64,000 nucleotides of DNA from an uncultured Parcubacteria group bacterium (GCA_947084965.1 CAMTUG010000001.1:211914-275913); one strand, 5' to 3'. Shown: positions 1-50,848, counted from the first letter of the stretch. Numbers and translations: made by a program. Notes: generated from the sequence alone by a model not told the origin.

Positions 1-243
1 GCGGCGGGCGGCGGCCACCTTGCGCTTCTCGGCGGCGTTGGCGCGGCGGGCGGCGTAGCGGGCGGCGCGCTCCTCGCGGGCCTTCTTGTTCGCCGCGGTC
101 TTGGCCTCGCGCTCGGCCTTCGCCGTCGCCTTCGCCTCGGCCCGCATCTGCCGGACCACGGCTTCCTTCTCGGCCTCCGTGGTGTCGGGGTTGAGGTTCT
201 GGATGGCGGCCTTCTCGGCCGAGGTCAGGTTGCGGAAACGCAT
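1..243 (-). CDS. hypothetical Lys/Ala/Glu-rich protein, 3' end cut by window edge (ATG at 241-243 on minus strand)
   Basis: Open minus-strand frame from ATG(243) to position 1 with no stop (MRFRNLTSAEKAAIQNLNPDTTEAEKEAVVRQMRAEAKATAKAEREAK...). AGGAG SD 7 nt upstream. GC3-rich codons like neighbouring high-GC genes. Absent from the ORF track because no stop lies inside the window. Confidence 0.45.
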   Translation of the reverse strand, partial: MRFRNLTSAEKAAIQNLNPDTTEAEKEAVVRQMRAEAKATAKAEREAKTAANKKAREERAARYAARRANAAEKRKVAAARR

Positions 244-331
244 GGCAGACTCCTGTGGTTGGACGTGAATTGGGATTGTGAGACGTTCTCTGGGGAGAGA
301 ATTCGCGGGGGAGACTTTTTAAATCTCATTC

Positions 332-378
332 CCGCAACAGATGCCACGAGTTATCTCGCGATCTCTGTTGCGGAGGGG
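332..378 (-). promoter_or_regulatory. palindromic element A1 (CCGCAACAG-N24-CTGTTGCGG, with conserved CTCGTGGCATCTG core) upstream of gene 1..243
   Basis: Near-identical copy at 1480-1522. The 9-bp inverted repeat arms and the 19-nt core CCGCAACAGATGCCACGAG are read directly from the sequence. Confidence 0.5.
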
Positions 379-409
379 ACAAGCCGTAGTGCCTGTCCCA
401 CTCCATCGA

Positions 410-667
410 TCACTCGACACCGCTGTCGGTGTCGGCTGGTTGGCCGGTATCGACCTCGACATCGACCTCGTCGCTGTCGATCGAGAGTTCCTCGACCAGG
501 ACGACGTATCCGGTGTCCTGCTTTCTGCAGCCGACGTCGCTGGTTCTGCTGAGGACCCCGTCGACGACGATCAGGGCGCAGACGATTCCGATGAGGACGA
601 CGACGAGCGCCCCGATCGTGGCGCAGACGTCGTATGCCACTTCCCAGACCATATCGATGATTTTCAT
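410..667 (-). CDS. small hydrophobic membrane protein (85 aa)
   Basis: ATG at 667 (MKIIDMVWEVAYDVCATIGALVVVLIGIV...) preceded by a GGAGAC SD. One predicted TM helix and an acidic C-terminus. The 361-aa ORF 410..1495 listed in the track is a spurious 5' extension across two other genes. Confidence 0.5.
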   Translation of the reverse strand: MKIIDMVWEVAYDVCATIGALVVVLIGIVCALIVVDGVLSRTSDVGCRKQDTGYVVLVEELSIDSDEVDVEVDTGQPADTDSGVE

Positions 668-714
668 GGTGTCTCCATGTCGGCGTTGCCGACGCGTGTG
701 AACGGACAGTGTGT

Positions 715-788
715 GTCCGCGAAAGAGGTGGCGAGCGATGCTCGTAAGCTCTTTTGCGGAGAGGATCGACCGTAGTGTCGATCCTCTC
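715..788 (-). promoter_or_regulatory. conserved intergenic element B1: 12-bp-stem hairpin (GAGAGGATCGAC..GTCGATCCTCTC) plus conserved 45-nt CCGCAAAAGAGCTTACGAGCATCGCTCGC..CTCTTTCGCGGAC
   Basis: A second copy at 1907-1973 has an identical 45-nt core but a different-sequence hairpin (GGGAAGTG..CACTTCCC). It sits upstream of gene 410..667 and downstream of gene 829..1401. Confidence 0.5.
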
Positions 789-828
789 TCACGCTGCAGA
801 CAGTGCCGGGTCTGCGAGCCGGGGCTGG

Positions 829-1401
829 TCAGTCCGCCACGACCTGCCAGGCGTCCCAGTAGGCCACGACCTCGACGGCCCGGGCCCGGATCTCGTCGCC
901 GGTGAGCGCCAGCGCCTCGTTGTTGCCGCCGGCGAGGTTCTTCACGAACCGCTCGTACCCGACCGGCGCCTTCGGACCGGCGAAGGCGAGGACCGCCACA
1001 AGGACGTGGGTGCAGTCCCTCTCCGAGATGTGGTGGAACTTCTCGGGCGTGCGCATCACGTCGGGGTCGGCGAGGTAGGCCTCGCGGGTGTACACGATCG
1101 CGGCGCAGGACTCGGCCGGGGCGGCGCAGGTGCGCTTGAGGAACAGGGAGGCCTGGCCGCGGTGCATCCGCACCACGTAGTCCTCGGGGTTCTTCGTGGT
1201 GCGCCCGACGCCCGCGCTGACCGTCTCGAGCACCTCGCTCGGCAGCATGATGAAGTGCTGGCCGGTCTGGCGGTCGGTCGACGGGTCGTGGGCGGCGACG
1301 GCGGCCTTGAGGACCTCCATGAAACGGGTGGGGTTGGTGACCTTCGTGCCGATCGTCTCGGTGGCGAAGGCGGTGAGGATGGACGAGTGGGCGATACGCA
1401 T
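829..1401 (-). CDS. hypothetical protein (190 aa)
   Basis: ATG at 1401 (MRIAHSSILTAFATETIGTKV...) with a GGAGAA SD 7 nt upstream. Strong GC3 bias. Track ORF 829..1446 is the same frame with 15 extra residues. Confidence 0.55.
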   Translation of the reverse strand: MRIAHSSILTAFATETIGTKVTNPTRFMEVLKAAVAAHDPSTDRQTGQHFIMLPSEVLETVSAGVGRTTKNPEDYVVRMHRGQASLFLKRTCAAPAESCAAIVYTREAYLADPDVMRTPEKFHHISERDCTHVLVAVLAFAGPKAPVGYERFVKNLAGGNNEALALTGDEIRARAVEVVAYWDAWQVVAD

Positions 1402-1463
1402 CTGTTGTTCTCCGTTCGTGTTGACTGATGCCGGACCTTTGGCCACCGGCTTCCCCTAGGGAG

Positions 1464-1527
1464 CGTTGCGGAAGTTTTTCCGCAACAGATGCCACGAGCT
1501 TAGCTCATGAATTCTGTTGCGGCGGGG
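1464..1527 (-). promoter_or_regulatory. palindromic element A2 (copy of A1) with an extra TTGCGGAA/TTCCGCAA hairpin
   Basis: CCGCAACAG 1480-1488 and CTGTTGCGG 1514-1522. The shared 19-nt core CCGCAACAGATGCCACGAG is identical to 332-350. Lies 63 nt upstream of the start of gene 829..1401. Confidence 0.5.
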
Positions 1528-1580
1528 AACGATGTGTTGCTCCCCGTCCACGTGAGTTCTCCAGGGTGAAGGTGCGTTGC

Positions 1581-1856
1581 TCAGTTGAAGGTGATGGCCA
1601 CCTCCAGCTCGTTCGCCTGCGCCTCGAGGCTGCGGGCGACGGCCTCCGGGCTGAAGGCCTCCGGGTTGGTCGCGAGAAGCTCCGTGAGTTCCTCGATGAA
1701 GATCGCACTCACGCGGTTGAGTGCTTCAGGCCTCTTCCCTCCGAGGAGGAGGATGAACCAGTCCGGGCGCTTGCGCAGCAGCTCGGCCTGCGCGCGCAGG
1801 ACGCCGATCTGCTTCTTCACGAACGCGACTTGCGCGTCCAGTTCTTCTTCCTTCAT
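1581..1856 (-). CDS. hypothetical small helical protein (91 aa)
   Basis: ATG at 1856 (MKEEELDAQVAFVKKQIGVLRAQAELLRKRPDWFILLLGGK...) with an AGGAG SD. Track ORF 1581..2036 is the same frame extended. Confidence 0.5.
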   Translation of the reverse strand: MKEEELDAQVAFVKKQIGVLRAQAELLRKRPDWFILLLGGKRPEALNRVSAIFIEELTELLATNPEAFSPEAVARSLEAQANELEVAITFN

Positions 1857-1906
1857 GGGGGACTCCTGGTGGTTGTTGGGGGAGAGTTGCGGTTGCCGTG
1901 AAGGGC

Positions 1907-1973
1907 GTCCGCGAAAGAGACAGCGAGCGATGCTCGTAAGCTCTTTTGCGGAGGGAAGTGAGTGCACTTCCCG
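1907..1973 (-). promoter_or_regulatory. conserved intergenic element B2 (copy of B1)
   Basis: GTCCGCGAAAGAG...GCGAGCGATGCTCGTAAGCTCTTTTGCGGAG is shared with 715-760. It is followed by a compensatory hairpin GGGAAGTGagtgCACTTCCC. Confidence 0.5.
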
Positions 1974-2036
1974 CCTAGCGTCGTTAGCGCGAATGAACGA
2001 TTCAGTCCTCCTAGTTGGTTTGTTGTTGGTTGTCAT

Positions 2037-2666
2037 CTAGGCCGCCGCCTGCTTCTTGTTCGCCGCGTAGCACGTCTCGCAGAGGATCCCGCGGGCGGGG
2101 TCGAGCAGCTTGCTCTCCTTGCCCATGACCTTGGCGGTGACGAACCCGCCGCAGGTGGTGCAGGAGTAGTGGGCGTGCTTCTTCCCTTCCAGCTTGCAGT
2201 GGCAGGTCTTGTCCTCCGGCAAGATCACGGCGTTGAAGACGATCTTCGCCGGGGCCGCGGCGAGCTTGTGGGCACGGGCGGCGTCGCGGCGCTTCTTCTC
2301 GTCCCGCACGTAGCGCCACCAGGCGATCTCGTGCTGGTCCTGCACGTGCGGCGGCTCCTCGTCCTCGTCGACCATCTCCTCGTCCTCGTCGGCCTCGCTC
2401 TCGCTGCCGCCGATGAGGTCGACCCAGGACTCGACCCCCGGGCTGCGGTAGACGAGGTCGGCCGGGCCCCAGGCGCTGAAGCCCTCGAGGTCCGAGTCGT
2501 CCAGCCCCTGCTCCTGGGCCAGCGCGAGGATCTCGTCGAGCTGGTCCTGGTTGAAGGTGCGGGACTTGTTCCCGATCTCGTACATGTCGCGCTCGGTGGC
2601 GCGGTCGTTCATCTCGCCGGCGTAGCGGGCGGCGGCGAGGGCGACGACGTTCTGGGGCTTGGTCAT
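2037..2666 (-). CDS. hypothetical acidic protein with C-terminal Cys-rich zinc-ribbon-like motif (CHC..H..C..C...C..C)
   Basis: ATG at 2666 with an AAGGAG SD. Asp/Glu-rich middle (EADEDEEMVDEDEE). C-terminal KTCHCKLEGKKHAHYSCTTCGG...CETC. Confidence 0.55.
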   Translation of the reverse strand: MTKPQNVVALAAARYAGEMNDRATERDMYEIGNKSRTFNQDQLDEILALAQEQGLDDSDLEGFSAWGPADLVYRSPGVESWVDLIGGSESEADEDEEMVDEDEEPPHVQDQHEIAWWRYVRDEKKRRDAARAHKLAAAPAKIVFNAVILPEDKTCHCKLEGKKHAHYSCTTCGGFVTAKVMGKESKLLDPARGILCETCYAANKKQAAA

Positions 2667-2835
2667 GGGATGCTCCTTCGGCTCAGTACGAGCAGATGGT
2701 TGTCGGTGGTGTCAAAGAGACCGTTTGGTAGTGGTCAGCTATCCGCAGCAGGGGTTGCTTGCCGGAACTCAGGAGCGAATCAAGGATTCGCTTCTAGGTT
2801 CCGGGTAGGGTGCGAGTGCACACCCTCCCGAGAGA

Positions 2836-3057
2836 TCACTTGGCCGCGATCGAGTCGCGGACGTTGGTCATCGGGACGCCGCCGTGGCGCCAGACGATGA
2901 CCTTGGCCGCCAGCTGGGGGTTGCCGCCGTAGCTGACGCGGCTGGTCGTGGCCCAGCTCATGGCGATCATGGCGATGGCGAAGCCGATGGTGATGAGGGT
3001 GGCGATCTGGATGTTGTTGGGGTTCGAGGCGTACTCGATGATCTGGGTGATGTCCAT
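2836..3057 (-). CDS. small membrane protein (73 aa)
   Basis: ATG at 3057 with an ACGGAG SD. Nearly every codon ends in G/C. Hydrophobic core IATLITIGFAIAMIAMSW. Confidence 0.5.
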   Translation of the reverse strand: MDITQIIEYASNPNNIQIATLITIGFAIAMIAMSWATTSRVSYGGNPQLAAKVIVWRHGGVPMTNVRDSIAAK

Positions 3058-3205
3058 GTGGGCTCCGTGGAAGAGGCATGGTCGTGTGACCGCGCCGGGG
3101 TGGGTGTTCTGGGCGGTCGGTGCCCAGACCGGAGAGGAGAAGAGATTCTCCGCTTTGGTCTGGGCCGGGCGCGCGTAGTTCGCACCCGGTCCGGAGAAGT
3201 GCGGC

Positions 3206-3433
3206 CTAGGCGGCCGCGGTGGTGTAGATCTCGATGATGCAGGCGGCGGCGGCCTGCTCGTGGGTGTCGGCGTCGATCTCGCCGATCACATGGCGGAGCT
3301 CGAGCTCCTCGGCCGCCATCCACCCGGAGGTCTCGCCGTCGGTCGCCTCGTCGCAGGCCACGAGGTCGAGGTCGATCGCGGGGGTGGCGTGGCAAGTGCA
3401 CTTGGCGGGGAAACAGGGGATACAGAGATACAT
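3206..3433 (-). CDS. small Cys-rich hypothetical protein (75 aa)
   Basis: ATG at 3433 with an AAGGAAG SD. N-terminal CIPCFPAKCTCH cysteine cluster. Confidence 0.4.
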   Translation of the reverse strand: MYLCIPCFPAKCTCHATPAIDLDLVACDEATDGETSGWMAAEELELRHVIGEIDADTHEQAAAACIIEIYTTAAA

Positions 3434-3924
3434 GGGGGCTTCCTTGGGTGAGGGACACTGACTGGCCGTGTGGCCGACGATCTACTGAGCGACGTTTCGC
3501 CCATGAATCTGGAGGGTAGGGACGCAGTGACCTGCCAAAGGCTGGTGTGCGTCATGACCGTCGAGTCCGTAGCAAGTGAGCTTGCGCCCAGTCGCTACGT
3601 TCGCCGGTCGACCGACTCGGTTTCCCGAGGTACGGCTACTCTCTCCTCCAGGTTCATGAACAAAAACCGCTTGTCTGTCTTGATCCTTTGGAGATCAAGT
3701 CAAACAAGCGGTAACGAACCCACCTATTCCTGCGCCCTCGTAAGGCGCCCAAATAGGTAGTTCGCGTTGACTCTCTCCCCAGAGAATATATGAGTTGTGA
3801 ATCCTGGGCGGTGAGCTCGTGACTCATCGTTCCAGGAGACTATTTATATCACATTTTGACCCTTCTGTCAAGGGAGTCAGGTGGTATTTGGGCCTAAGTT
3901 AGCCAAAATATTATCGGTAAATTC

Positions 3925-4055
3925 GAAGCACGAAATCCGAAATTCAAAACAAATTCGAATCGGAAAGGAGGAAGTTTTTAAAACTTCACTTTTTCCGAAT
4001 TTCCCGATTGTTTCGTATTTCGATATTCGAATTCCGCATTTCACGTTATAATGTC
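3925..4055. repeat. AT-rich palindromic repeat R1 built from CGAAATACGAAA / TTCGTATTTCGAA units around a central AAGTTTTTAAAACTT palindrome
   Basis: Same unit family as 6050-6148 and 6508-6565. The right arm TTGTTTCGTATTTCGATATTCGAATT is the reverse complement of the left arm of R2. A TATAAT box at 4047-4052 lies just before the holB ATG. Confidence 0.6.
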
Positions 4056-4061
4056 TCCACT

Positions 4062-4925
4062 ATGGATCAGTTGATCGGACACAGCGTGGCAAAAGAACTC
4101 CTTTTGCGGATGGTCAAAAGCGGTCGTTTGGGATCGGGGCTGATTTTGGTCGGGGCAGAAGGGGTTGGGAAAAGGAAAATGGCTGATTGGTTGGTGGAGG
4201 GTGGTTGGAAAGAGGAAAGAGGTGAGAGCAAAGAAGAGATGCGAGCGGATCTGATGGTTATTGAACGTCAACGTAATGACAAGGGCGATCTCAAAAAGAA
4301 CATCAGCATTGAACAGATCCGAGATCTGATTCAACGCCTTTCCATGAGTTCGTTTTCTGGGGGCGCGAAGATCGGTTTGATTGATGGGGCGGAAACGCTT
4401 TCTCTTGATGCGGCCAATGCGCTCCTCAAAACGCTCGAAGACCCTTCGGGAAAAACACACGTGATATTACTTGCGACTTCGGTTGCAAATCTCCCAGCCA
4501 CGATCCTTTCGCGCTGCCAAGTGATTCATCTCGGTCTCGTGCCGCGATCAGAGATCACCACAGCACTTGTCGACCGCGGCGCACCTCGATCGCTGGCAGA
4601 AGAGATCGCCGGATTCGCCGCCGGTCGTCCCGGCATCGCTCTCACGCTTTTGAAGGATGCCGAAGCGCTGGAGTCCGCGGTCGCGAGCAAAGATCGTCTC
4701 CGCGAACTCCTCGCCGCTTCACTCAGTCGGCGATTCGGGATCATTCAGGAATCGGTCAAAGGTGAAGACAAACGCAAAGAGGAGATTTCGCAGATGCTGA
4801 ACGTCTGGGAAACGACGCTCCACGACCTTGGCGAAATCACTCTGCTCGCTCGATTGACCGAAGCCCGCCGCGCCATCGCCCAAAATGTCAGTCCGCAATT
4901 AGCCCTTGAACACGCGTTTCTTTAA
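4062..4925 (+). CDS. holB: DNA polymerase III delta-prime subunit (clamp-loader AAA+ protein), divergent
   Basis: GHSVAKELLLRMVKSGRLGSGLILVGAEGVGKRK Walker-A-like segment, SRCQ sensor motif, HolB-like C-terminal helical domain. The ATG at 4062 follows TATAAT at 4047-4052, suggesting a leaderless or short-leader transcript. The track ORF starts at a TTG inside the repeat. Confidence 0.65.
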   Translation: MDQLIGHSVAKELLLRMVKSGRLGSGLILVGAEGVGKRKMADWLVEGGWKEERGESKEEMRADLMVIERQRNDKGDLKKNISIEQIRDLIQRLSMSSFSGGAKIGLIDGAETLSLDAANALLKTLEDPSGKTHVILLATSVANLPATILSRCQVIHLGLVPRSEITTALVDRGAPRSLAEEIAGFAAGRPGIALTLLKDAEALESAVASKDRLRELLAASLSRRFGIIQESVKGEDKRKEEISQMLNVWETTLHDLGEITLLARLTEARRAIAQNVSPQLALEHAFL

Positions 4926-4982
4926 AACTCCAAATCTCAAATTCCAAGTAACAAATAATTTTCAAAAGATCAATATTCCAAT

Positions 4983-6041
4983 ATGAAAACGCGACTACCA
5001 TTTTTCCTTATCCTTACCGTGTTGCTTACCACTGGCGCGGGGTGTATTTCATTCAAAAGTTCGGAGGTTTCGGGTAACGGCGGTGTGTGGACAACGGCCG
5101 ACGCCGGGGCGACCTGGGTCGCGAGCAGTACCGTTCCGACGCCAGAAGGGACCTCGACGATCAGCGGCGGTAACGTCACTGCGCTCCACTTCGATCCTTC
5201 GGATCCAGATGCTGTTTACCTTGGCACACGCGAGAACGGACTTTTTTATTCCTACGACAACGGTGCAGGTTGGATGCGGGTAAAAGAAGAGGCGTTGCGT
5301 ACAGGGTGGATTCGGGCGGTGGCCGTTGATCCTTCAGACAAGTGTACGGTGTACGTAGCCAAAGGAAATAACGTCATGAAGTCCACGGACTGTGCTCGCA
5401 CCTGGGATCTGGAAACGTTTGTAGAAACGAACGGAAAGATTATTTTGTCCCTCAGTGTGGATTGGTTCAATCCTCAGATCGTCTGGATCGGTACCGAAGC
5501 GGGGGATGTGGTGAAATCCACGGACGGAGGAGCTACCTGGTCGACCCTTGCGCGGGTGAAAGATGAAGTCGTGCACCTGATGGTGAGTAATGCCGATTCG
5601 CGCATCGTGCTTGCCGCGACCGAAGGCAAGGGCCTTTGGCGGACAACGGACGGCGGAGCGACCTGGACGCGCCTGGAAGACGAGTTGAAGAGTTTCCAAG
5701 ACAGCGAAGATGGATACCTTTTGGCACAAGACAAGGCAGGAACGGTGATGTACTTCGCCAACAAGTATGGGTTGTTGAAGTCGGTCGATAGTGGCGCGAC
5801 CTGGGAAGGATTGACGCTCGTGACCAAGCCGCGCAGCGTGCATATTTACTCGTTGGCGGTGAATCCTGATGACGGCAACAATGTTTTTTACGGAACAGCG
5901 ACGACGTTCTACGCCTCGACCGACGGCGGCGCGAGTTGGTCCACCCGCGAATTGCCTTCGACCCGCTATGCAACGGCACTTGCGGTTGACCCGAATGCCG
6001 TTGGTACGGTGTTCCTGGGGTCCTCGACGATTGAGGAATAA
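4983..6041 (+). CDS. BNR/Asp-box repeat beta-propeller lipoprotein (Ycf48/sialidase-like)
   Basis: Signal peptide plus lipobox LLTTGAGC. Five S/T-x-D-G-G-x-T-W motifs (TADAGATW, STDGGATW, TTDGGATW, SVDSGATW, STDGGASW). Confidence 0.75.
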   Translation: MKTRLPFFLILTVLLTTGAGCISFKSSEVSGNGGVWTTADAGATWVASSTVPTPEGTSTISGGNVTALHFDPSDPDAVYLGTRENGLFYSYDNGAGWMRVKEEALRTGWIRAVAVDPSDKCTVYVAKGNNVMKSTDCARTWDLETFVETNGKIILSLSVDWFNPQIVWIGTEAGDVVKSTDGGATWSTLARVKDEVVHLMVSNADSRIVLAATEGKGLWRTTDGGATWTRLEDELKSFQDSEDGYLLAQDKAGTVMYFANKYGLLKSVDSGATWEGLTLVTKPRSVHIYSLAVNPDDGNNVFYGTATTFYASTDGGASWSTRELPSTRYATALAVDPNAVGTVFLGSSTIEE

Positions 6042-6049
6042 CTGAGATT

Positions 6050-6148
6050 AAATTCGAAATACGAAAAACGAAATTCGAAACAATCGGAAATCGAAAAGGG
6101 AAAGGTTTAAAACTGTCTATTCGAATTTCGTATTTCGAATTTTTTAAG
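6050..6148. repeat. AT-rich palindromic repeat R2 (17-bp stem AAATTCGAAATACGAAA / TTTCGTATTTCGAATTT around a TTTAAAAC centre)
   Basis: Arms are reverse-complementary as read. It sits between the BNR lipoprotein gene and the four-helix-bundle gene and may act as a bidirectional terminator. Confidence 0.6.
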
Positions 6149-6150
6149 AT

Positions 6151-6507
6151 ATGCCTCAGTATGATCTTGAGGGGCGGACCCTACAGTTTGCGATGGATGT
6201 CCGTAAGTTTGTGAAGTGTCTTCATCGATCTGTGGCAAATACAGAGGATACCAAACAGGTTATCAGATCATCTGGATCGATCGGAGCAAATTATATCGAA
6301 GCCAATGAATCTCTTGGAAAGAAAGATTTTTCCATGAGGATTCGGATCTCAAGGAAGGAATCGAAGGAGACGAGATTTTGGTTATTCCTGATTGACACAG
6401 GCGACAACCAGGAGCTGGAAGTCGAGCGCCATCGGCTCATTAAGGAATCGACAGAGCTTATGTTGATTTTCGGTTCAATTCTTCAGAAGAGTTTGCGCAT
6501 TTCCTGA
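6151..6507 (+). CDS. four-helix-bundle protein of the 23S rRNA intervening-sequence / Avd-like family
   Basis: 118 aa. Motifs ...RSSGSIGANYIEANES...KKDFSMRIRISRKESKETRFWLFL... are typical of the 'S23 ribosomal / four helix bundle' family, which also includes DGR Avd proteins. Confidence 0.75.
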   Translation: MPQYDLEGRTLQFAMDVRKFVKCLHRSVANTEDTKQVIRSSGSIGANYIEANESLGKKDFSMRIRISRKESKETRFWLFLIDTGDNQELEVERHRLIKESTELMLIFGSILQKSLRIS

Positions 6508-6565
6508 TTTTTCTATTCGAATTTGTTTCGTATTTCGATTTTCGTATTTCGGATTTCATGAATTG
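6508..6565. repeat. AT-rich repeat R3 (TTCGAATTTGTTTCGTATTTCGATTTTCGTATTTCGGATTTC)
   Basis: Third member of the CGAAATACGAAA unit family. It lies immediately 3' of the four-helix-bundle gene, so that gene is bracketed by R2 and R3. Confidence 0.55.
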
Positions 6566-6600
6566 CCAAAACCGATCAATTCAGCTAAGCTTCAGAAACT

Positions 6601-7158
6601 ATGGCATCAACATTTATTGCGAAACATAAACCGGATTTTGACAAAGTCATCGATCATTTGCAGGCCGAACTCAATGCGATTCGTACCGGACGCGCCAATT
6701 CGGCGATCTTGGATTCCGTTCAGGTGGAAGCCTACGGATCGATGATGGAATTAAAAGGGGTGGCGTCGATCAGTGTGCCGGACGCCAAGACGATCACCAT
6801 TGAGCCGTGGGACAAATCCGTTCTGCACGCGATTGAAACCGCCATTCAAAAGTCCGACATCGGGATCAATCCGGTCAACGATGGCAAACTGATCCGGTTG
6901 ACGATGCCGCAAATGACCGAGGAATCGCGTTTGCGTTTGGTGAAGGTGGTGAAAGAAAAGATCGAAGAAGGTCGCGTGGCCATGCGCCAAGTGCGCGAAA
7001 AGGTACGCGACGAAGTGATCGCCAAAGAAAAGGCGAAAGAGATCCCTGAAGATGAGCGCTTTAAGGTCCTCGAGGAATTGGACAAGTACGTCAAAGAATT
7101 GGGGGGCGAGATCGACGCGATCGGAGAGAAGAAGGAGGAAGAAATCATGACGGTGTAG
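6601..7158 (+). CDS. frr: ribosome recycling factor
   Basis: Full-length RRF-like sequence (LQAELNAIRTGRANSAILDSVQVEAYG...LIRLTMPQMTEESRLRLVKVVKEK...). Confidence 0.9.
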   Translation: MASTFIAKHKPDFDKVIDHLQAELNAIRTGRANSAILDSVQVEAYGSMMELKGVASISVPDAKTITIEPWDKSVLHAIETAIQKSDIGINPVNDGKLIRLTMPQMTEESRLRLVKVVKEKIEEGRVAMRQVREKVRDEVIAKEKAKEIPEDERFKVLEELDKYVKELGGEIDAIGEKKEEEIMTV

Positions 7159-7191
7159 GACGAAAGAGGTTAGAGGTTAGAAGAAAAAAGA

Positions 7192-8523
7192 ATGACTATG
7201 GCAGACGTAACGATGGAGAAATTGGTGAATTTGTGTAAGGCTCGGGGGTTCGTGTACCCGGGCTCTGACATTTATGGTGGGCTGGCCAACTCCTGGGACT
7301 ACGGTCCGCTGGGGGTGGAGTTGAAAAAGAATATTGTGGACGCCTGGTGGAAGCGCTTTGTGACGTCACGTCGCGATATGGTTGGGATCGATGCCGCCGT
7401 GATCATGAATCCGAAAGTGTGGGAGGCGTCGGGACACTTGGCCGAATTCACGGACCCGCTCGTTGAATGTAAAAAATGTCACACCCGTTATCGTGCTGAT
7501 CAGATCGATGTCTCTGCTGCTTGCACGCATTGCGGCACCAAAGGGGAATTCACCGACGCCAAGAATTTCAACTTGATGTTTAAGACGTTCCTCGGTTCAA
7601 CCGAAGACGCCGCTGGTGTTGCCTACTTGCGCGGGGAGTTGGCGCAGGGGATGTTCGTGGATTTTCCGATGGTTCAGCAATCATCGCGCAAGCGCGTGCC
7701 GTTCGGGATCGCCCAGGTCGGAAAGTGTTTCCGTAATGAAATCACTCCAGGCAATTTCATCTTCCGTACCCGCGAATTCAACTTGATGGAGTTTGAGTAC
7801 TTCATCCATCCGTCAGAATGGGAAAAGCATTTTGAGTATTGGCTTGGAGAAATGAAAGCCTGGCTGAAGTTTTTGGGTGTTGCGGACGATAAGCTCGTCT
7901 ATCACGACATCGAAGATGGAGAACGTGCCCACTATTCCAAGCGCACCGTTGATATTGAGTATCACTATCCGTTCGGCCAGAAGGAATTGTATGGTCTCGC
8001 GTATCGTACGGATTTTGACTTGAAGAATCACATGGAAAAGTCTGGCAAGGATCTGCGCTACACCGATCCGATGACCAATGAAAAGTATTTGCCGCACGTC
8101 ATCGAACCGACGTTTGGTATTGATCGTTCGCTTCTTGTAACCCTCCTCGAAGCGTACCGCGAAGAAGAAGCGCCAACGAGCGAAGAGGGGGAATCGGCGA
8201 CGCGTGTTGTCCTGAGGCTTCCAAAGTCACTCGCCCCGTACAAAGTGGCTGTGCTTCCATTATCCAAAAAAGACGAACTTTCGAGTGTCGCGTTGAAACT
8301 CGCCGATGATCTGCGCACCCAATTCGCCTGCGACTACGATGAAACGCAATCGATCGGCAAACGCTATCGCCGCCAAGACGAAATCGGCACGCCGTTCTGT
8401 GTGACCGTGGACTTTGACTCGCTCACCGATCAATCGGTCACGGTGCGGGATCGCGACACGATGGCCCAAGAACGGGTGAAGATCGCCGAACTCGCGGACT
8501 ATTTGAAAAACAAATTGGCATAG
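7192..8523 (+). CDS. glyQS: glycine--tRNA ligase, single-chain alpha2 type
   Basis: Class II GlyRS hallmarks (GFVYPGSDIYGGLANSWDYGPLG, FRNEITPGNFIFRTREF, C-terminal anticodon-binding domain). 443 aa. Confidence 0.9.
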   Translation: MTMADVTMEKLVNLCKARGFVYPGSDIYGGLANSWDYGPLGVELKKNIVDAWWKRFVTSRRDMVGIDAAVIMNPKVWEASGHLAEFTDPLVECKKCHTRYRADQIDVSAACTHCGTKGEFTDAKNFNLMFKTFLGSTEDAAGVAYLRGELAQGMFVDFPMVQQSSRKRVPFGIAQVGKCFRNEITPGNFIFRTREFNLMEFEYFIHPSEWEKHFEYWLGEMKAWLKFLGVADDKLVYHDIEDGERAHYSKRTVDIEYHYPFGQKELYGLAYRTDFDLKNHMEKSGKDLRYTDPMTNEKYLPHVIEPTFGIDRSLLVTLLEAYREEEAPTSEEGESATRVVLRLPKSLAPYKVAVLPLSKKDELSSVALKLADDLRTQFACDYDETQSIGKRYRRQDEIGTPFCVTVDFDSLTDQSVTVRDRDTMAQERVKIAELADYLKNKLA

Positions 8524-8528
8524 GCGAT

Positions 8529-9803
8529 ATGTTGAAAGGGAAAACGCTGAAGAACGGAACGCGCGTCCATCTAGTGCCAACAGAAGGAACAGAAGCGACA
8601 ACCTTACTTGTTCTTTTTAAAGTCGGTTCGCGCAACGAATCGCTGCCGGTGTGGGGCGGATCACACTTTGTCGAACACTTGATGTTTAAGGGAACAAAGA
8701 AGCGGGGGACCACGCTCGATATTTCACGCGAACTCGATCGCTACGGCGCTGAATACAACGCCTATACCGGAAAGGACTTAACCGGCTATTGGGTCAAAAT
8801 CGAAAGTGGCAAAATTGGTGTCGCGGTCGACTTGTTGCACGACATGCTGTTTCACTCGAAGTTCGATGCGACCGAAATGACGCGCGAGAAAAAGGTGATC
8901 ATTGAAGAGATCAAGATGTACGAAGAGAATCCGATCATGCACATCGAAGACTTGCTCGAAGAGGCGATGTTCGATGGTCACGTGCTCGGACGCAACATCG
9001 CTGGCACGGCCAAATCGATGATCGCCATGAAACGCAACGACGTCGTTACTTATCACAAAAATTACTACGTCCCGGAAAACATGGTAGTCGTGATGGCCGG
9101 AAGCGTGCCAAAGAATGCCTTGGCCATGATTCAAAAAACGTTCGGCGGTGTTTCGTCCAAAAAGATGAAACGGCTCGACGAGCCGTTTGCTGGAGTGCTG
9201 GCAGCCAAATCGATTCGTGCTCGCATTCAGACGAAGCCGGTTGAGCAGATTCAGTTGGCACTCGGATTTCCAACGGGCGGCCGGGCGCATAAAGATATGG
9301 ACGCGCTGAAACTCTTGGCTTCGATTTTAGGTGGAACGATGTCTTCGCGGTTATTTGTCGAAGTGCGCGAGAAACGCGGGTTGTGCTATACCGTGCGTGC
9401 TGGACTTGATGCTTATGATGACGTCGGTGTTTTCCAGATTCGCGCCGGGCTCGACGCCAAGCGATTGAAGGAGGCGATGAAGGTGATTATCGATGAAGTG
9501 AAGAAGGTGGTCAAAGATGGCGTCTCTGCGAAAGAATTACAGATGGCCAAGGATAATGTCCGCGGCGGTATGCTCCTCCAGCTCGAGGACTCATCCGCTA
9601 GCGCAGAATTTGTCGCCCGCCAAGAATTATTTTTGCGTGAAGTGCTGACGCCAGAAGAACGGATGAAGCGCTTCGATGCGGTGACGCGTGAAGACGTCCT
9701 TCGTGCCGCGCGAGAAGTTCTGGATTTTCGTCTGATGTCCGCGGCAGGGATCGGTCCATACAAAACGACAACGGAGTTTTTGAAACACTTTCCTAAACTA
9801 TGA
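8529..9803 (+). CDS. M16 family zinc metallopeptidase (insulinase/pitrilysin-like)
   Basis: Inverted zinc motif HFVEHLMFKGT (HxxEH), a downstream E in REKKVIIEEI, and a two-domain M16 length. Confidence 0.8.
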   Translation: MLKGKTLKNGTRVHLVPTEGTEATTLLVLFKVGSRNESLPVWGGSHFVEHLMFKGTKKRGTTLDISRELDRYGAEYNAYTGKDLTGYWVKIESGKIGVAVDLLHDMLFHSKFDATEMTREKKVIIEEIKMYEENPIMHIEDLLEEAMFDGHVLGRNIAGTAKSMIAMKRNDVVTYHKNYYVPENMVVVMAGSVPKNALAMIQKTFGGVSSKKMKRLDEPFAGVLAAKSIRARIQTKPVEQIQLALGFPTGGRAHKDMDALKLLASILGGTMSSRLFVEVREKRGLCYTVRAGLDAYDDVGVFQIRAGLDAKRLKEAMKVIIDEVKKVVKDGVSAKELQMAKDNVRGGMLLQLEDSSASAEFVARQELFLREVLTPEERMKRFDAVTREDVLRAAREVLDFRLMSAAGIGPYKTTTEFLKHFPKL

Positions 9804-10564
9804 AGACGCTCGTCGCCAACTGGAAGATGCACTTGACGGTGCGCCAGTCGGTCGCCTTGGCGAAGGTGTCCGTTGCTGCGTTGCGTGGTAAAACGGCGCT
9901 GCCTGAGGTTATTCTCGCTCCAAGTTTTCCAGCGCTCGAAGCGGTGCACCGGGTGATAGCGAAAAGTCGCCTTGGCCTCTGCGCTCAGGATGTTTCCTTT
10001 GAAGACGCCGGCGCCTTTACCGGCGAAGTTTCTCCGCGACAACTCAAAGATCTCGGAGTCACCCATGTGATCATCGGTCACAGTGAACGCCGAGCGATGG
10101 GGGAAACGGATGCGACGATTAACAAGAAGGTGATCGCTGTGCTGGCTGCCGGAATGACGCCGATTATCTGCGTTGGGGAAAGGAAAGAGGAAAGAGGAAA
10201 GAGGAAAGAGATCGTCACCCGTCAAGTTAAAGCCGCGCTGGCGACACTGAAGACCCGGGCCAAGGAACACCTTGTTTTCGCTTATGAACCGATTTGGGCG
10301 ATCGGCACGGGTGATGCGGCGACTCCAGAAGATGCGGTTGCCATGCATGCCTGCATCCGGGAAACGGCGCTTGGGGCCATTGACGGACTAAAAGAAAAAC
10401 AACTGCGTGTGCTGTATGGTGGAAGCGTCAACGGAAAAAATGCGCAGAGTTTCTTGTGTGAAGATCAGATTGACGGATTGCTCGTCGGCGGGGCCAGTTT
10501 GAAACCTGTCGAATGGAAGGCGATTATCACCGCTGCGATCAAGATTCAAAATGGGAAACGTTAA
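9800..10564 (+). CDS. tpiA: triose-phosphate isomerase
   Basis: NWKMH, IIGHSERR, ICVGE, AYEPIWAIGTG and YGGSV motifs. Start overlaps the M16 stop (ATGA). Contains an in-frame (AGGAAAG)4 tract at 10181-10210 encoding RKEERGKRKE. Confidence 0.9.
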   Translation: MKTLVANWKMHLTVRQSVALAKVSVAALRGKTALPEVILAPSFPALEAVHRVIAKSRLGLCAQDVSFEDAGAFTGEVSPRQLKDLGVTHVIIGHSERRAMGETDATINKKVIAVLAAGMTPIICVGERKEERGKRKEIVTRQVKAALATLKTRAKEHLVFAYEPIWAIGTGDAATPEDAVAMHACIRETALGAIDGLKEKQLRVLYGGSVNGKNAQSFLCEDQIDGLLVGGASLKPVEWKAIITAAIKIQNGKR

Positions 10565-10565
10565 T

Positions 10566-11351
10566 ATGCTCTCCCTCTGGATTCCGCTCGGTATCATCAT
10601 CCTGTCGGTCATCCTTCTGCTCGTCTTGGCGATCAGAAAGATTCCGTATTTGCGCGCGCTTGATGTCCTTTCTGCACCGGAGCAAAAGGCTAAAGAGTTG
10701 AAACGTGCGCTGATCGCCTCGCGCCTTTCGCGTGCTGGGGCAAAATACGGAGGACAGATGAAGAAGATTTTTTCGCCGATCGTTGGAGCCGCCAAGTCGA
10801 GCGGAAGAAAGGCGGCAGAAAAAGTTTCTGCCCTTGAAGAACGCTATCAAAAGCTTCGGCGGGAAGCGATGGGACCGCACGCTCTGACTCCAGCGATGAT
10901 TAAAGAGATGATCAGTAAAGCCGAAGCGTTCATTAAGGATGAGCGATACGGCGAAGCGGAAAAAGCGTTAATCGAAGTTCTCTCCCACGATGCCAAGAAC
11001 GCTGAGGCGTACGAAACGCTCGGTTATCTATTCATGCTTCAGAAGAATTACGATCAGGCAGAAGAGACGTATAACTTTATCTTGAAAATTCAGCCAGGAG
11101 ACGCCTCGGTCCTAACGTCATTAGGGGAAATTGAATTGGCTCGAAATAATCCGGAGAAGGCGAAACAGTACTTCGATAAGGCGGTGAAGAAGCGTCCGCA
11201 TAATCCGAAGTATCTCGATTTTCTGCTGGAAGCATCGATCCAGGCTAAGGATGCTTCCGCAGCTCGCTGGGCGCTCGAGCAACTTCGCGGGGCGAATCCA
11301 GAAAATAAGAAACTCGGCGAATTTGAAGAGCGCATTCAATCGATTTCATAG
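10566..11351 (+). CDS. TPR-repeat protein with N-terminal transmembrane anchor
   Basis: N-terminal TM helix (LSLWIPLGIIILSVILLLVLAI), then about three TPR-like helical repeats (AEAYETLGYLFMLQKNYDQAEETYNFILKIQPGD...). Confidence 0.6.
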   Translation: MLSLWIPLGIIILSVILLLVLAIRKIPYLRALDVLSAPEQKAKELKRALIASRLSRAGAKYGGQMKKIFSPIVGAAKSSGRKAAEKVSALEERYQKLRREAMGPHALTPAMIKEMISKAEAFIKDERYGEAEKALIEVLSHDAKNAEAYETLGYLFMLQKNYDQAEETYNFILKIQPGDASVLTSLGEIELARNNPEKAKQYFDKAVKKRPHNPKYLDFLLEASIQAKDASAARWALEQLRGANPENKKLGEFEERIQSIS

Positions 11352-11452: not shown

Positions 11453-12589
11453 ATGTTCATCGCGCCGTTCATCCTTTCGCTCTTCGCTCCGGCCTTCGCC
11501 GAGGAGCCCGTCCCCGTCGTCTCGCCGGTCGCCGCGCCCAAGACCTACATCCTCGTCGCCGGGACGAGCGAGTACCAGAACGCGCCGGACCTGCCGGGCG
11601 TCGAGGGGGCGACCAAGGACTGCCAGACGATCGGTGCTCGGCTGATCGAGGTCGGGTTCACCACCGAGCAGGTCACCGCGCTCTGCGGCGACAAGCTCAC
11701 CAAGCCGGCGGTCGTCGAGGCGGTCAACACCCTGGCGCCCCGACTTGTTGCCGGGGACACCTTCGTCGTCGTCTGGATCGGCCACGGCGGCCAGGACCCG
11801 AAGGACGAGACCAAGAAGTACTGGCAGGGCTACGACGGCAGCTTCGTCGTCGATCCGGCCGCCCCGACCAACTACTTCACGACCGGGATCACCCCGACGA
11901 TGCTCACGAAGGCGATCAAGAGCAAGACGCCGGCCGGGACCCCGATCGTCCTCATGACCGACACGTCGGACAGTGGGTCCTACAACGGGATCCCGCTCAG
12001 CGGGCCGGTCGCCGACACCTTCGAGAAGGAGGTCTACATGATCTCCCCGGGGATGGCGCTTGGCAAGTCCGGGGCGCTCACGAAGTCGTTCATCGGCTGT
12101 CTCGAGCCCCGCATGCGCTACGGCGTCGCCGAGGAGCACACCGCGATCGAGGTCCAGGCCTGCATGTCGAACGGTCTCAGGGCCAGCAACATCGAGTCGT
12201 GGCTTTCCAGCGCGGACTGGGATACGATCACCACGCTCATCTGGTTCCCGCCGCTTCCGCCCGCGCTTCCCAGGCCACTCCCTGAGCAGACGGCCAGGAA
12301 GCCGTCGACGGTGAAGCCGGCGATGCGCTGGGGCGGTGTCGCCCTCGCCGTCATCGGTGGCGGTGGAGCAGCCGCGTCGTACCTCCACGCGGACGGCATC
12401 GCGGGACAGATCGCTGACGAGAACGGCGTCGTCGATCCCCGGGACGCGGCCGCGCTCGAGGAGTACAACCTGTTCAAGACCCTGACCTACGTCGGCTACG
12501 GTGTCGTCGGCCTCGGTGCGATCAGCTTCGGCGGTTCGCTCGTCGTCGCTCCCGCCCCGACCGGTGTCACGGTCAGCGGAACGTTCTAA
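11453..12589 (+). CDS. caspase-fold (peptidase C14-like) domain protein with signal peptide and C-terminal TM segments; catalytic Cys position occupied by Ser
   Basis: YILVAGTSEY...DCQTIGARLIEVGF...VVVWIGHGG...PIVLMTDTSDSGS matches the caspase/metacaspase strand order with His retained. DTSDSG sits where D-A-C-H-S-G is expected. N-terminal MFIAPFILSLFAPAFA signal. Gly-rich hydrophobic C-terminus. About 68% GC. Confidence 0.55.
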   Translation: MFIAPFILSLFAPAFAEEPVPVVSPVAAPKTYILVAGTSEYQNAPDLPGVEGATKDCQTIGARLIEVGFTTEQVTALCGDKLTKPAVVEAVNTLAPRLVAGDTFVVVWIGHGGQDPKDETKKYWQGYDGSFVVDPAAPTNYFTTGITPTMLTKAIKSKTPAGTPIVLMTDTSDSGSYNGIPLSGPVADTFEKEVYMISPGMALGKSGALTKSFIGCLEPRMRYGVAEEHTAIEVQACMSNGLRASNIESWLSSADWDTITTLIWFPPLPPALPRPLPEQTARKPSTVKPAMRWGGVALAVIGGGGAAASYLHADGIAGQIADENGVVDPRDAAALEEYNLFKTLTYVGYGVVGLGAISFGGSLVVAPAPTGVTVSGTF

Positions 12590-12614
12590 CCGTTCCGACC
12601 TCTCTAACGTGAAG

Positions 12615-12650
12615 CCCCCGACTGCAGACGGCAGTCGGGGGTTCGCATTT
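12615..12650 (+). terminator. intrinsic terminator (CCCCCGACTGC agacg GCAGTCGGGGG + TTCGCATTTTGT)
   Basis: 11-bp perfect stem and a T-rich tail just 3' of the caspase-like gene. Confidence 0.6.
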
Positions 12651-12694
12651 TGTCCGAGGTCCGGAGAGCGAGTGGCGCGCTCCGGACCGTCTGA

Positions 12695-13528
12695 CTAGCG
12701 GAAGTAGAGGGTGTGGTTGGACGCCTTGGGGCGTTGGCCGGCCAGTCGGTCGAACTGGGTGGGGACGAATCCCCCCAGGTTGACCCCCTGGAGACGCAGG
12801 GCCGAGGTTGCGTCGACGTCGCCGACCAGCCAGGCGTTCCACAGCGACTCGGCGAAGTCGCCGCCGCGGGTGCGCAGGGCACTCTCGATCACGGGCCAGG
12901 CTTCGTCCGAGTGCCAGTGATCGAACGGCGTGTACTCCGGCGGGAAGGTTGCCGGGAACCCGAACAGGGCGCGGAACCAGTTGGGGATCGCGCGGCGGGT
13001 TGCGATCTCCTGGTTGCGGAGATCGACCTTGGTGCGGTTCTCGCTCCAGAAGTCGATCTCGATGAAGGGCGTGTCCGTATCGCCCCCCTTGCGAACCGGG
13101 CAGAAGAAGATGGAGAACCCCGCGCTCACCTTGGCGCCGCGAAGGATCAGGAGGTTGAGCAAGGGTTCGAGCCGGGCCTTCATGCCCTTCTCGTCTCGCA
13201 TCTTGTCCAGGATCTTCGGGTGCTTCGGTCCGGCGCTGATCACCCAGCTCCCGAGCGGCACGGGGCCGGTCGTCTTGAGATCTTCGAGCACCGCCCGGAC
13301 CTCGACGAGTGCCGGGACGGACACGGGCTTCTGCCGTTCGCGGAACGGGGTGAGGGTCACCCAGGGCAGGCTCGGGTCGACCTCGTCCTTGTCGATCACG
13401 CGGTCGGTGGGGAGACGCAGGACCCGGCTCTTGTTGTCCGGTCGGTCGATGTCCGGCGTCCGGATGAACGAACGCACTTCGGGTGCGCCCTTCTTGGGAA
13501 CGGCGAAGGGGAGAGATCTCTGGGCCAC
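12695..13528 (-). CDS. hypothetical protein (about 277 aa, high GC), likely GTG start
   Basis: Long GC3-rich frame. The first 35 residues of track ORF 12695..13633 lie in AT-rich promoter DNA. GTG at 13528 is preceded by GAGGT. No recognisable domain. Confidence 0.45.
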   Translation of the reverse strand: MAQRSLPFAVPKKGAPEVRSFIRTPDIDRPDNKSRVLRLPTDRVIDKDEVDPSLPWVTLTPFRERQKPVSVPALVEVRAVLEDLKTTGPVPLGSWVISAGPKHPKILDKMRDEKGMKARLEPLLNLLILRGAKVSAGFSIFFCPVRKGGDTDTPFIEIDFWSENRTKVDLRNQEIATRRAIPNWFRALFGFPATFPPEYTPFDHWHSDEAWPVIESALRTRGGDFAESLWNAWLVGDVDATSALRLQGVNLGGFVPTQFDRLAGQRPKASNHTLYFR

Positions 13529-13589
13529 GGCTACCTCGGGGTTAAGGGTTTGCACATGAAAGCATTTTTTCAAATGAACGTCAATGATT

Positions 13590-13647
13590 ATTGACAATTC
13601 GCTTATTTTCGTGTTAAAGAACCGTTGGCACATTCACGGAGGTCTAG
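13590..13647 (+). promoter_or_regulatory. AT-rich divergent promoter region with TTGACA box and GGAGGT SD for the kinase gene
   Basis: TTGACA at 13592-13597. GGAGGT sits 6 nt before the ATG at 13648. This is the only AT-rich stretch inside the high-GC island. Confidence 0.35.
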
Positions 13648-15456: not shown

Positions 15457-15531
15457 GCCGCAGTAGCTCAGTGGTAGAGCACCTCCATGGTAAGGAGGGG
15501 GTCTCGGGTTCAAATCCCGACTGTGGCTCCA
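15457..15531 (+). tRNA. tRNA-Thr (anticodon GGT)
   Basis: Cloverleaf GCCGCAG/ta/GCTCagtggtAGAGC/a/CCTCCatGGTaaGGAGG/gggtc/TCGGGttcaaatCCCGA/CTGTGGC/t/CCA. CCA is encoded. Confidence 0.85.
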
Positions 15532-15532
15532 T

Positions 15533-15568
15533 GAAAATAGATCAGAAGTTTCTGATCTATTTTCATTT
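15533..15568 (+). terminator. intrinsic terminator after tRNA-Thr (GAAAATAGATCAG aagtttc CTGATCTATTTTC)
   Basis: Perfect 13-bp stem with a T-rich 3' side. Confidence 0.7.
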
Positions 15569-15666
15569 AAGGGTGGGGATTTGAACCGTGGGAAAGGGGT
15601 ACGGGGAAAACGAACACGAGGGAGACCTGTTTGTGTTACAATTAAACAAAGGATGCATGAATATTT

Positions 15667-16677: not shown

Positions 16678-16803
16678 AAGTGAGCGTCCGACGATCAACT
16701 TTTTAAAACACTGTTGTTGAAGCTCTTTTAGCTTGCCTAGAATAGTCCCTCACCAGGCCTTGCTTTTTAGCTTCCGTTTGTATATCATGCTCACGCAAAA
16801 CAT

Positions 16804-16890
16804 GGGCAGGTACCGAAGTGGTCAAACGGGGGAGACTGTAAATCTCCTGGCTTTACGCCTTCGATGGTTCGAACCCATCCCTGCCCACCA
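16804..16890 (+). tRNA. tRNA-Tyr (anticodon GTA), long variable arm
   Basis: GGGCAGG acceptor pairs with CCTGCCC. Anticodon stem-loop GGAGA-CTGTAAA-TCTCC. Type II variable arm. T-arm GATGGttcgaacCCATC. CCA encoded. Confidence 0.8.
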
Positions 16891-16891
16891 G

Positions 16892-17017
16892 ACCGGTCCG
16901 CAGATTTTGGTCCAGGACTGTGTTGCGGGGCCCTGTCGTCTTGTCGCCGTACGTTTCAGTACGGCTCCTGCGCCGACGTCCCGCGCCTTGTCCTGAACAC
17001 AAAATCTGCAGACCGGC
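16892..17017. repeat. 18-bp inverted repeat (ACCGGTCCGCAGATTTTG / CAAAATCTGCAGACCGGC) enclosing a GC-rich 90-bp spacer between tRNA-Tyr and tRNA-Thr
   Basis: Arms match 16/18. The spacer GC is much higher than the flanks and contains a CCGTACGtttcaGTACGG hairpin. Confidence 0.5.
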
Positions 17018-17027
17018 GCTAAAACAG

Positions 17028-17101
17028 GCCGGCGTAGCTCAGTGGTAGAGCAACACTTTTGTAAAGTGAAGGTCGTCGGTTCAAATCCGACCGTCGGCTC
17101 C
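17028..17101 (+). tRNA. tRNA-Thr (anticodon TGT)
   Basis: GCCGGCG acceptor pairs with CGTCGGC. D-arm GCTCagtggtAGAGC. Anticodon loop tTTGTaa. T-arm GTCGGttcaaatCCGAC. CCA encoded. Confidence 0.8.
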
Positions 17102-17157
17102 AGAGTATTGACGAAATCAGCCCGTTTTGTTACTATCCCAGCACATAAATTTGCCAT

Positions 17158-17313: not shown

Positions 17314-17376
17314 TCAAAAGCCGCCTCCGGGCGGTTCTTGATTTTCCCCCAAGGAGTCGGTATAGTTCCGCCGCAT

Positions 17377-50826: not shown

Positions 50827-50848
50827 GGTCCCCGACCCTGTCGCTTCC

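Follow-up and report, generated by a model that had tools for sequence, protein, structure and literature searches.

A lineage-specific, hypervariable gene array with hairpin modules and a structured leader RNA: a possible cassette operon of integron-like logic in a Patescibacteria chromosome

Sedentary chromosomal integrons and CALINs (clusters of attC sites lacking an integrase) hold their gene cassettes on a fixed chromosomal platform with a common promoter at one end. The integron proper is recognized by an adjacent integrase gene, intI, with its attI site, and by attC sites with R'' (RYYYAAC) and R' (GTTRRRY) boxes, extrahelical bases and asymmetry. We know of no integron reported in Patescibacteria, and a literature search turned up nothing relevant. 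In T4-type phages, small ORFans are flanked by stem-loop intergenic modules, the promoter early stem-loops (PeSLs), each combining a strong early promoter with a terminator, and with a presumed part in modular shuffling (Arbiol et al. 2010, PMC2839356; PMC4122927). Repetitive extragenic palindromes (REPs) and bacterial interspersed mosaic elements (BIMEs) of enterobacteria, finally, are dispersed genome-wide and mobilized by RAYT (REP-associated tyrosine transposase) proteins. Patescibacteria themselves have tiny genomes and depend on other cells; little is known so far of how they acquire and test foreign genes. Here, we analyze a 64,000-nt stretch (the window) from an uncultured Parcubacteria group bacterium (GCA_947084965.1 CAMTUG010000001.1:211914-275913), and tentatively read its positions 1-3460 as the part nearest the promoter of a hypervariable gene-cassette operon, specific to its lineage, of the Patescibacteria chromosome, with an integron-like logic and junction modules selected for their structure.

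The left end of the window stands out by its composition. GC content is 64-66% per 1-kb window over 1-3000 and 45-56% in most of the remaining window, so that an initial annotation of this DNA, made from the sequence alone, rightly set off a high-GC block at 1-3460 and was slightly high in putting it at about 70%; the coding parts of the block reach 61-74%. The seven open reading frames (ORFs; g1-g7, table 1) lie on the minus strand, as that annotation had it, each with a Shine-Dalgarno (SD) sequence of GGAG/AGGAG type 5-8 nt ahead of the ATG. Their GC content at third codon positions (GC3) is 0.84-1.00, against 0.57-0.66 in holB, the genes for a BNR protein and RRF, and the host genes that follow; these frames are therefore real coding sequence, of a composition foreign to the host. 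Searches of Pfam, PHROGs, PADLOC and NCBIfam gave no match for any of the seven proteins. Cumulative GC skew climbs almost monotonically over the 64 kb and most host genes lie on the plus strand, because of which the array genes presumably run head-on to replication.

Each gene of the array is accompanied by one bipartite hairpin module of fixed orientation and position. On the gene strand, it opens with a short GC-rich hairpin, hp1; a gap of 0-1 nt separates this from hp2, which spans about 43 nt and is made up of an outer stem of 10-11 bp, a small internal loop, an inner stem of 5-8 bp and a loop of 3-5 nt; 50-96 nt of C-rich sequence then lead to the SD and ATG of the next gene. Six of the six spacers in the window have this architecture. 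The initial annotation had seen it as two palindromic elements, A and B, at the first four genes, and these are indeed present: the pattern CCGCRAMAG-N18-30-CTKTTKCGG matches at the four hp2 hairpins of modules A1, B1, A2 and B2 (table 1) and nowhere else in the 64 kb, where zero sites were expected and no shuffle yielded any, and eight of nine half-site copies fall inside the array. The same architecture, in unrelated sequence, also occurs at 2762-2829 and 3122-3188. The 19-nt core reported for type A lies within 22 nt shared by the two copies at 95% identity. The 45-nt identical core reported for type B is in fact a stretch of 47 nt at 94% identity, made of 13 + 31 identical bases around 3 mismatches, and the hairpins said to adjoin this type are both present as hp1 (table 1). 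A strict alternation of the two types carries no weight, two plus two copies falling into ABAB by chance in 2/6 of cases. The hp2 hairpins of A and B are sequence subtypes that can be aligned end to end, and to this extent form one family. The elements had been placed upstream of the genes; in the direction of transcription, they lie 3' of each gene. In the complete array of a related genome (L027, described below), a module follows every gene including the last and none stands 5' of the first high-GC gene, which assigns the modules to the 3' end of genes.

What is conserved in the modules is pairing and not sequence. The hp2 arms differ between modules (CCGCAACAGA, CCGCAAAAGAG, CCTCACACAAGA, CCGGAAC..., GCCCAGACC... 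and CTCTGGAACTCA) with pairing kept throughout, each pair of arms lying 20-23 nt apart and enclosing the second stem. In an alignment of eight modules from four genomes, comprising 22 base pairs, 92.9% of cells are paired, and ten of the 22 pairs have changed on both sides, compared with 3.2 +/- 1.4 in shuffled alignments (0/500) and at most 3 in slid controls. The compensatory change that had been pointed out in type B as a sign of selection on structure is thereby borne out, and A and B are selected for pairing rather than for a protein-readable sequence. Homology between B modules begins a few bases 5' of hp1 and ends directly after hp2. A covariance model (CM) of the module finds copies in the arrays only, with none elsewhere in the window, no match in the loci of g3 homologs from other phyla or in 20 viral loci, and no copy beyond the array in the 64 kb, which are part of a genome of at least 476 kb, or in the relatives' flanking DNA. 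The modules have no U tract, and a terminator scan returned only sub-stems inside hp2, at the level of shuffles (5 vs 4.4); they do not qualify as intrinsic terminators. Whole-spacer folding energies favor the antisense strand, but as a strand test they are confounded by the C-richness of the sense strand; GC content confounds the density of hairpins over the window in the same way. An uptake-signal or REP origin was set aside because, within the window, the half-sites are confined to the array.

The locus is conserved and its gene content is not. By using a degenerate motif scan of JGI metagenomes, which returned L027 as its sole contig, and searches starting from relatives of holB, which gave L028 (100% identical to L029), L030 and L031/L032, we obtained, with the window, five genomes for comparison. 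L027 is syntenic with 3833-11336 of the window, with proteins 50-80% identical. L027, L028 and L030 share one map: a TrmB-family gene, the array, a non-coding leader, then holB, BNR and RRF, with a GT4 glycosyltransferase gene at the TrmB-side flank in L028 and L030; in L031, the contig covers holB, the leader and the beginning of an array and stops ahead of the far flank. The trmB-like gene is convergent with the array and of host composition. Complete arrays in the relatives measure 3.3-3.7 kb at 60-70% GC, and their small genes all point away from holB. Comparison by blastp of the array proteins of the five genomes gave no between-genome match at E<1e-3. The type-B module, with two copies in the window and one each in L027, L028 and L030, is 77-89% identical across genomes, all L027 spacers contain hp1 and hp2, and the leader is 70-80% identical, whereas the holB proteins are only about 50% identical. 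The pair L028 and L029 was also considered for cassette insertions and deletions between strains and set aside, the two being 100% identical and their apparent differences gene-calling effects.

A further array of the same lineage is represented by L035, a contig of 708 nt whose terminal cassette is the sole homolog of g4 (61% identity). It has a B-like hp2 half on its 5' side, and hp1, the terminal module and the shared terminator on its 3' side; the stretch homologous to the window extends over the hp2 half, the ORF and about 40 nt beyond the stop codon. Given its terminal place in L035, the same gene occupies different positions in different arrays. Array ends are marked by canonical A-stem-T terminators, whose loop TTCTCCCCAG is common to L028, L030, L031 and L035. 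The lineage thus uses ordinary terminators, and the U-less modules are internal to one transcription unit. As a side observation, the 15-mer TTCTCTGGGGAGAGA has one copy in the first spacer, IG1 (285-301, plus strand), and one inverted copy in the leader, whose first hairpin it makes up (3772-3786); on the gene strand, the IG1 copy resembles the terminator loop TTCTCCCCAG and may be a relic of a former array end.

The 630 nt from g7 to holB, which hold no ORF of more than 96 aa, contain a putative, near-consensus promoter and the leader (table 1), both of host composition. The promoter is also conserved in L027 (CTTGACAAAATCCTCAAAATGTGGTATTGT). A consensus promoter scan of 1-4200 reported no site and thus missed it, the last base of its -10 element being A. 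The leader, found in a single copy per locus, has a folding z of -9.1 on the gene strand versus -5.9 on the opposite strand in the window, and of -11.2 in L027. Its consensus structure over the five genomes has 84 pairs with 90.4% of cells paired, and 29 of the pairs have compensatory changes; shuffled alignments give 14.2 +/- 2.6 (0/500), and slid controls no more than 9. Several of its G.U pairs are invariant, where the opposite strand would give C.A mismatches. By its covariation and invariant G.U pairs, the leader is a structured RNA of the array strand. Rfam 15 returned only tRNAs above gathering thresholds, and no credible match at E<=5 in 1-4200 for leader or modules; this RNA of about 400 nt is previously undescribed. 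In the minimum free energy fold of the window sequence, the leader's first hairpin has the SD region of g7 as an alternative pairing partner. Candidate roles are those of a regulatory 5' leader, an aid to polymerase read-through at the hairpins, or a partner in cassette capture.

Table 1. Genes, hairpin modules, leader and putative promoter of the array (hp1 and hp2, first and second hairpin on the gene strand).
Feature	Position	Strand	Description
g1	1-243	-	N-terminal 81 aa only, Lys/Ala-rich; cut by left edge of window; GC3 0.98; seventh visible cassette
Module A1	332-399	-	hp1 376-399, GGGACAGGC/GCTTGTCCC; hp2 332-373, CCGCAACAGA...TCTGTTGCGG; inner stem TCGCGAG/CTCGTGG; CM R1 74.4 bits
g2	410-667	-	85 aa; predicted transmembrane segment, acidic tail; GC3 0.84
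Module B1	717-788	-	hp1 759-788, 12-bp perfect stem (759-770/777-788, 100% complementary); hp2 717-759; CM 84.8 bits; 89% identity to L027 12634-12686
g3	829-1401	-	190 aa; large unannotated family
Module A2	1480-1545	-	hp1 1524-1545; hp2 1480-1522; CM 72.1 bits
g4	1581-1856	-	91 aa; one homolog, 61% identity, in array L035
Module B2	1909-1972	-	hp1 1953-1972 (1953-1960/1965-1972), GGGAAGTG/CACTTCCC; hp2 1909-1951; CM 71 bits
g5	2037-2666	-	209 aa; acidic center, Cys-rich zinc-ribbon-like C-terminus; GC3 0.99
Module, unique sequence	2762-2829	-	hp2 2762-2804, CCGGAAC...GTTCCGG; hp1 2805-2829
g6	2836-3057	-	73 aa; small, membrane-type; GC3 1.00
Module, unique sequence	3122-3188	-	hp2 3122-3165, 20-nt arms; hp1 3166-3188
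g7	3206-3433	-	75 aa, Cys-rich; GC3 0.93; first (promoter-proximal) cassette; with holB on independent Logan contig
Structured leader RNA	3434-3836	-	First hairpin UUCUCUGGGGAGAGA, long hairpin 3666-3712, multi-branch domain
Putative array promoter	3843-3871	-	TTGACA 3871-3866, 17-nt spacer, TGaTATAAA, -10 at 3848-3843; read by eye

Among the cassette genes, g3 has a large family, with more than 650 unannotated members at about 55% identity. Its predicted fold (model m0b68df433763) has a pLDDT (predicted local distance difference test) score of 96, and its only fold neighbors in the PDB are two apicomplexan hypothetical proteins, 4fbd (Toxoplasma) and 2pd0 (Cryptosporidium), at E of about 1e-5. 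These two may be DUF3228 proteins, an assignment that Pfam did not confirm and on which a literature search gave no result; a g3 profile run against PDB sequences gave noise only. Across 19 species genomes of several phyla, one of them archaeal (a metagenome-assembled genome), g3 homologs are usually solitary genes of 62-69% GC in genomes of 32-47% GC, and none of these 19 genomes has homologs of g1, g2 or g4-g7 beside them. The closest ones, P0002 and P0003, were considered as module carriers and rejected, as they lie in low-GC genomes without modules. The family is also present on 22 IMG/VR contigs, which range in size over 6.6-407 kb and mostly exceed 50 kb; there, the gene matches its contig in GC content (41-69%), gene packing is tight and hairpin spacers are lacking. 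The g3 gene, at least, therefore comes from a gene pool shared with large phages. The g5 protein found only itself among 5.8 billion proteins and is a true ORFan. In one of the g3 loci (L007, Patescibacteria, 35% GC), small GC-rich genes by the g3 homolog are each preceded by a low-GC, promoter-like repeat, GGGACTTTTATAGAAGTATCTAT.T.TAGATGTTTCTTAGAAGA, with copies at 2740-2785 and 3935-3980.

We propose the following working of the array. The conserved sigma-70-type promoter (3871-3843, minus strand) would drive the structured leader of about 400 nt and, behind it, co-oriented small genes, presumably acquired horizontally, with GC3 near saturation and each with its own SD and 3' module. The modules would be the cassette junctions, structure-bearing sites at which DNA units could be inserted, lost or exchanged, and the platform promoter would serve each captured gene, which would come to be bounded by a module. 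Once transcribed, these hairpins would also separate and stabilize cistrons. The anatomy, the conserved locus with its total turnover of genes, the covariation in modules and leader, the foreign composition and the lack of recombinase or phage genes close by are observed; recombination at the modules, an enzyme responsible for it and any such role at the RNA level are inferred. A cassette-capture model accounts for the same module with each unrelated foreign gene, for the sharp module borders and for the complete array difference at a fixed locus. Co-oriented, promoterless cassettes of variable content behind a platform promoter are observed here as in integrons, and the initial description of a cassette array was apt in this respect; the repressor control that it added is unsupported.

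Several observations weigh against this proposal. Despite its integron-like layout, the array does not pass as an integron, because there is no intI near, AAC/GTT occurs in three module types only, extrahelical bases are absent and an RNA occupies the place of intI/attI. No Phage_integrase or recombinase appears in the Pfam lists for +/-9 kb around the L028 and L030 arrays, nor any recombinase gene among the 30 window ORFs scanned, and the adjacent intI with attI that defines an integron is absent. Stem ends of the AAC...GTT form are confined to type A (CCGCAAC...GTTGCGG), the module hairpin at 2762-2804 (CCGGAAC...GTTCCGG) and L027_0, that is, 3 of about 9 module types; they are absent from type B, the most conserved one, and from the others, and so the R'' and R' boxes of attC sites are not there. 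The internal loops of the predicted hp2 folds are symmetric and no base is bulged or extrahelical, with one conserved mismatch at position 5 of the B-type outer stem, so that, as far as folding predictions go, neither the extrahelical bases nor the asymmetry of attC is seen. A strand test on the wobble pairs of hp2, in which five types favor the antisense strand and two the sense strand, is not significant; this mixed asymmetry singles out neither an RNA reading nor one based on bottom-strand DNA. No close pair of strains differing by one cassette was present among the genomes compared, and mobility of a single unit was not directly seen. Finally, recombination of a generic hotspot kind at the conserved flanks could account for the turnover, in which case the hairpins would act in RNA only.

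This last view is the main alternative. According to it, the modules would be exonuclease blocks, sites of RNase III-like processing or leader-enabled pause sites that set the stability and expression of cistrons, and gene turnover would come from recombination at the flanks. The leader, with its invariant G.U pairs, clearly belongs to the RNA level on the gene strand; the modules stand inside one transcription unit that extends from the promoter to a canonical terminator; the inner stems of type A use G.U pairs on the gene strand; and tandem hairpins also occur 3' of g3 homologs in unrelated genomes (L011, L016 and L017). On the other hand, it leaves unexplained that unrelated foreign genes in different genomes are each followed by one and the same sharply bordered 75-nt module, and that a module is present though a real terminator lies close behind, as it does after the last gene of L027 and L030. 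Moreover, most hp2 types have A.C mismatches on the gene strand that correspond to G.U pairs on the opposite strand. We consider this explanation rather unlikely. It seems improbable, and clearly more so, that the block is the captured early or hyperplastic region of a high-GC phage or mobile element, its modules being PeSL-like regulatory cassettes of that element. In its favor, the genes are small ORFans, some of the 22 viral contigs with g3 have 63-69% GC with the gene matching the contig, and PeSL modules are known to flank ORFans and to recombine (PMC2839356). However, viral g3 genes are tightly packed among their neighbors with no hairpin spacer, and the viral loci give no match to the module CM. 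Searches with 1-3800 (blastn) and with g3 (tblastn) of phage (50,697 records) and plasmid collections were empty, as were exact and degenerate motif scans of IMG/VR, and no phage hallmark gene lies within 9 kb of the relatives' arrays. There is also no promoter inside the modules, and hence no sigma-70 promoter plus terminator per module as in PeSLs, and the promoter and leader are of host composition at a fixed chromosomal site in relatives. The phage or plasmid early region initially suggested thus gives way to a chromosomal locus conserved between trmB and holB in three relatives, without hallmark, PHROG or collection matches; the marks of a prophage or phage early region are absent, apart from the presence of the g3 family on IMG/VR contigs.

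The palindromes had also been taken for one operator family, and the dyad symmetry of the sites and the trmB-like gene that borders the array in L027, L028 and L030 would suit operators of a repressor, for instance of that TrmB-family regulator. However, because the arms differ widely among modules, with pairing conserved, and because modules lie 3' of genes, the last included, one repressor could not read them all. The arms are moreover held 20-23 nt apart around a second stem, the trmB-like gene is convergent and of host composition, and no half-site is shared at promoters, the modules lying away from the only one. Operators are for these reasons very unlikely, and we give equally little credence to selfish, REP-like or MITE-like (miniature inverted-repeat transposable element) palindromes sitting in the spacers without function for the array. 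The modules are short imperfect palindromes in intergenic DNA, and their repeated copies do break short-read assemblies, other Logan contigs of run ERR3478686 being broken exactly at the B repeats. But in the DNA surveyed, copies are confined to the array, with eight of nine half-sites inside it and no CM match in the rest of the 64 kb or in the relatives' flanks; each gene has exactly one, always in the same orientation and place; the surroundings have no RAYT or IS200-type gene; and the modules are more conserved across genomes than housekeeping DNA. The sharp GC step at about 3460-3800, for its part, had raised the suspicion of a chimeric join between a high-GC organism and a genome of about 52% GC. 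This is effectively refuted, as the Logan assembly of ERR3478686 independently contains a 5468-nt contig that spans the end of g6, g7, the leader spacer, holB, the BNR protein and RRF, and as four other genomes have the same GC step in the same place.

Returning to the cassette operon, a stronger version of it would be a hitherto unknown capture platform of Patescibacteria that uses no integron integrase, in which leader RNA and modules together direct capture or excision of foreign genes. The leader and modules might guide or recruit a recombinase encoded elsewhere, or the route might be a single-stranded DNA intermediate via the competence system. We regard this version as improbable; if it were true, ultra-small symbionts would sample genes from high-GC hosts or from the large phages of these hosts. 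More generally, a fixed platform that expresses ever-changing foreign ORFans would extend the integron principle to a new phylum, with another site architecture and no linked integrase. The array points to a pool of ORFan genes, of which at least one is shared with large phages, and it provides two testable motifs with covariation support, the leader RNA of about 400 nt and the junction module of about 75 nt.

Other parts of the window also depart from host composition. A second GC-rich island, at 11453-15366 (62-68% GC, GC3 0.80-0.91), encodes a caspase-like Peptidase_C14 protein, an unannotated protein of 312 aa and a Ser/Thr kinase, and GC-rich islands beside the g3 homologs of L016 and L018 encode bpMoxR, VWA and SAVED domains; caspase-like, kinase, bpMoxR, VWA and SAVED genes are typical of conflict and defense systems. 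Further islands of 62-66% GC, at 36196-37071, 46978-49092 and 50005-51090, encode, in turn, an acyltransferase and proteins of 704 and 361 aa, neither of these two with a Pfam match, GC being raised more at first than at third codon positions in the latter two islands. DNA of host-like composition includes an ORF of 2885 aa at 19900-28557, with zero Pfam matches, and a cluster of tRNA genes (Thr-GGT, Tyr, Thr-TGT and Trp) at 15457-17451.

Set against the systems described at the outset, the array shares with REPs and BIMEs, which can stabilize upstream mRNA, imperfect palindromes of 35-45 nt, often paired, that lie between the cistrons of an operon; unlike these dispersed elements, its modules are, in the DNA surveyed, confined to one array, at one per gene. 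With PeSLs it has in common short, conserved stem-loop modules in a co-oriented and highly variable ORFan region. It differs from them in modules that have no detected promoter or U tract, in its location in a bacterial chromosome and not in a phage, and in cassettes that depart strongly in composition from the surrounding replicon. From integrons, it differs by the lack of an adjacent intI and by the structured RNA leader of 400 nt in the place of intI/attI, as well as by its sites, which are shorter (43 nt), are preceded by a second hairpin, have AAC...GTT in 3 of about 9 types and are without extrahelical bases. With sedentary chromosomal integrons and CALINs, however, it shares the fixed chromosomal platform with a common promoter at one end; small, co-oriented, promoterless and mostly ORFan cassettes, whose content is wholly different between relatives; and a structured imperfect palindrome 3' of each ORF, in which structure is kept throughout and sequence partly within the lineage. 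Indeed, the succession of stem, internal loop, stem and small loop in hp2 is reminiscent of the R box, unpaired central spacer (UCS), L box and variable terminal structure (VTS) of attC sites.

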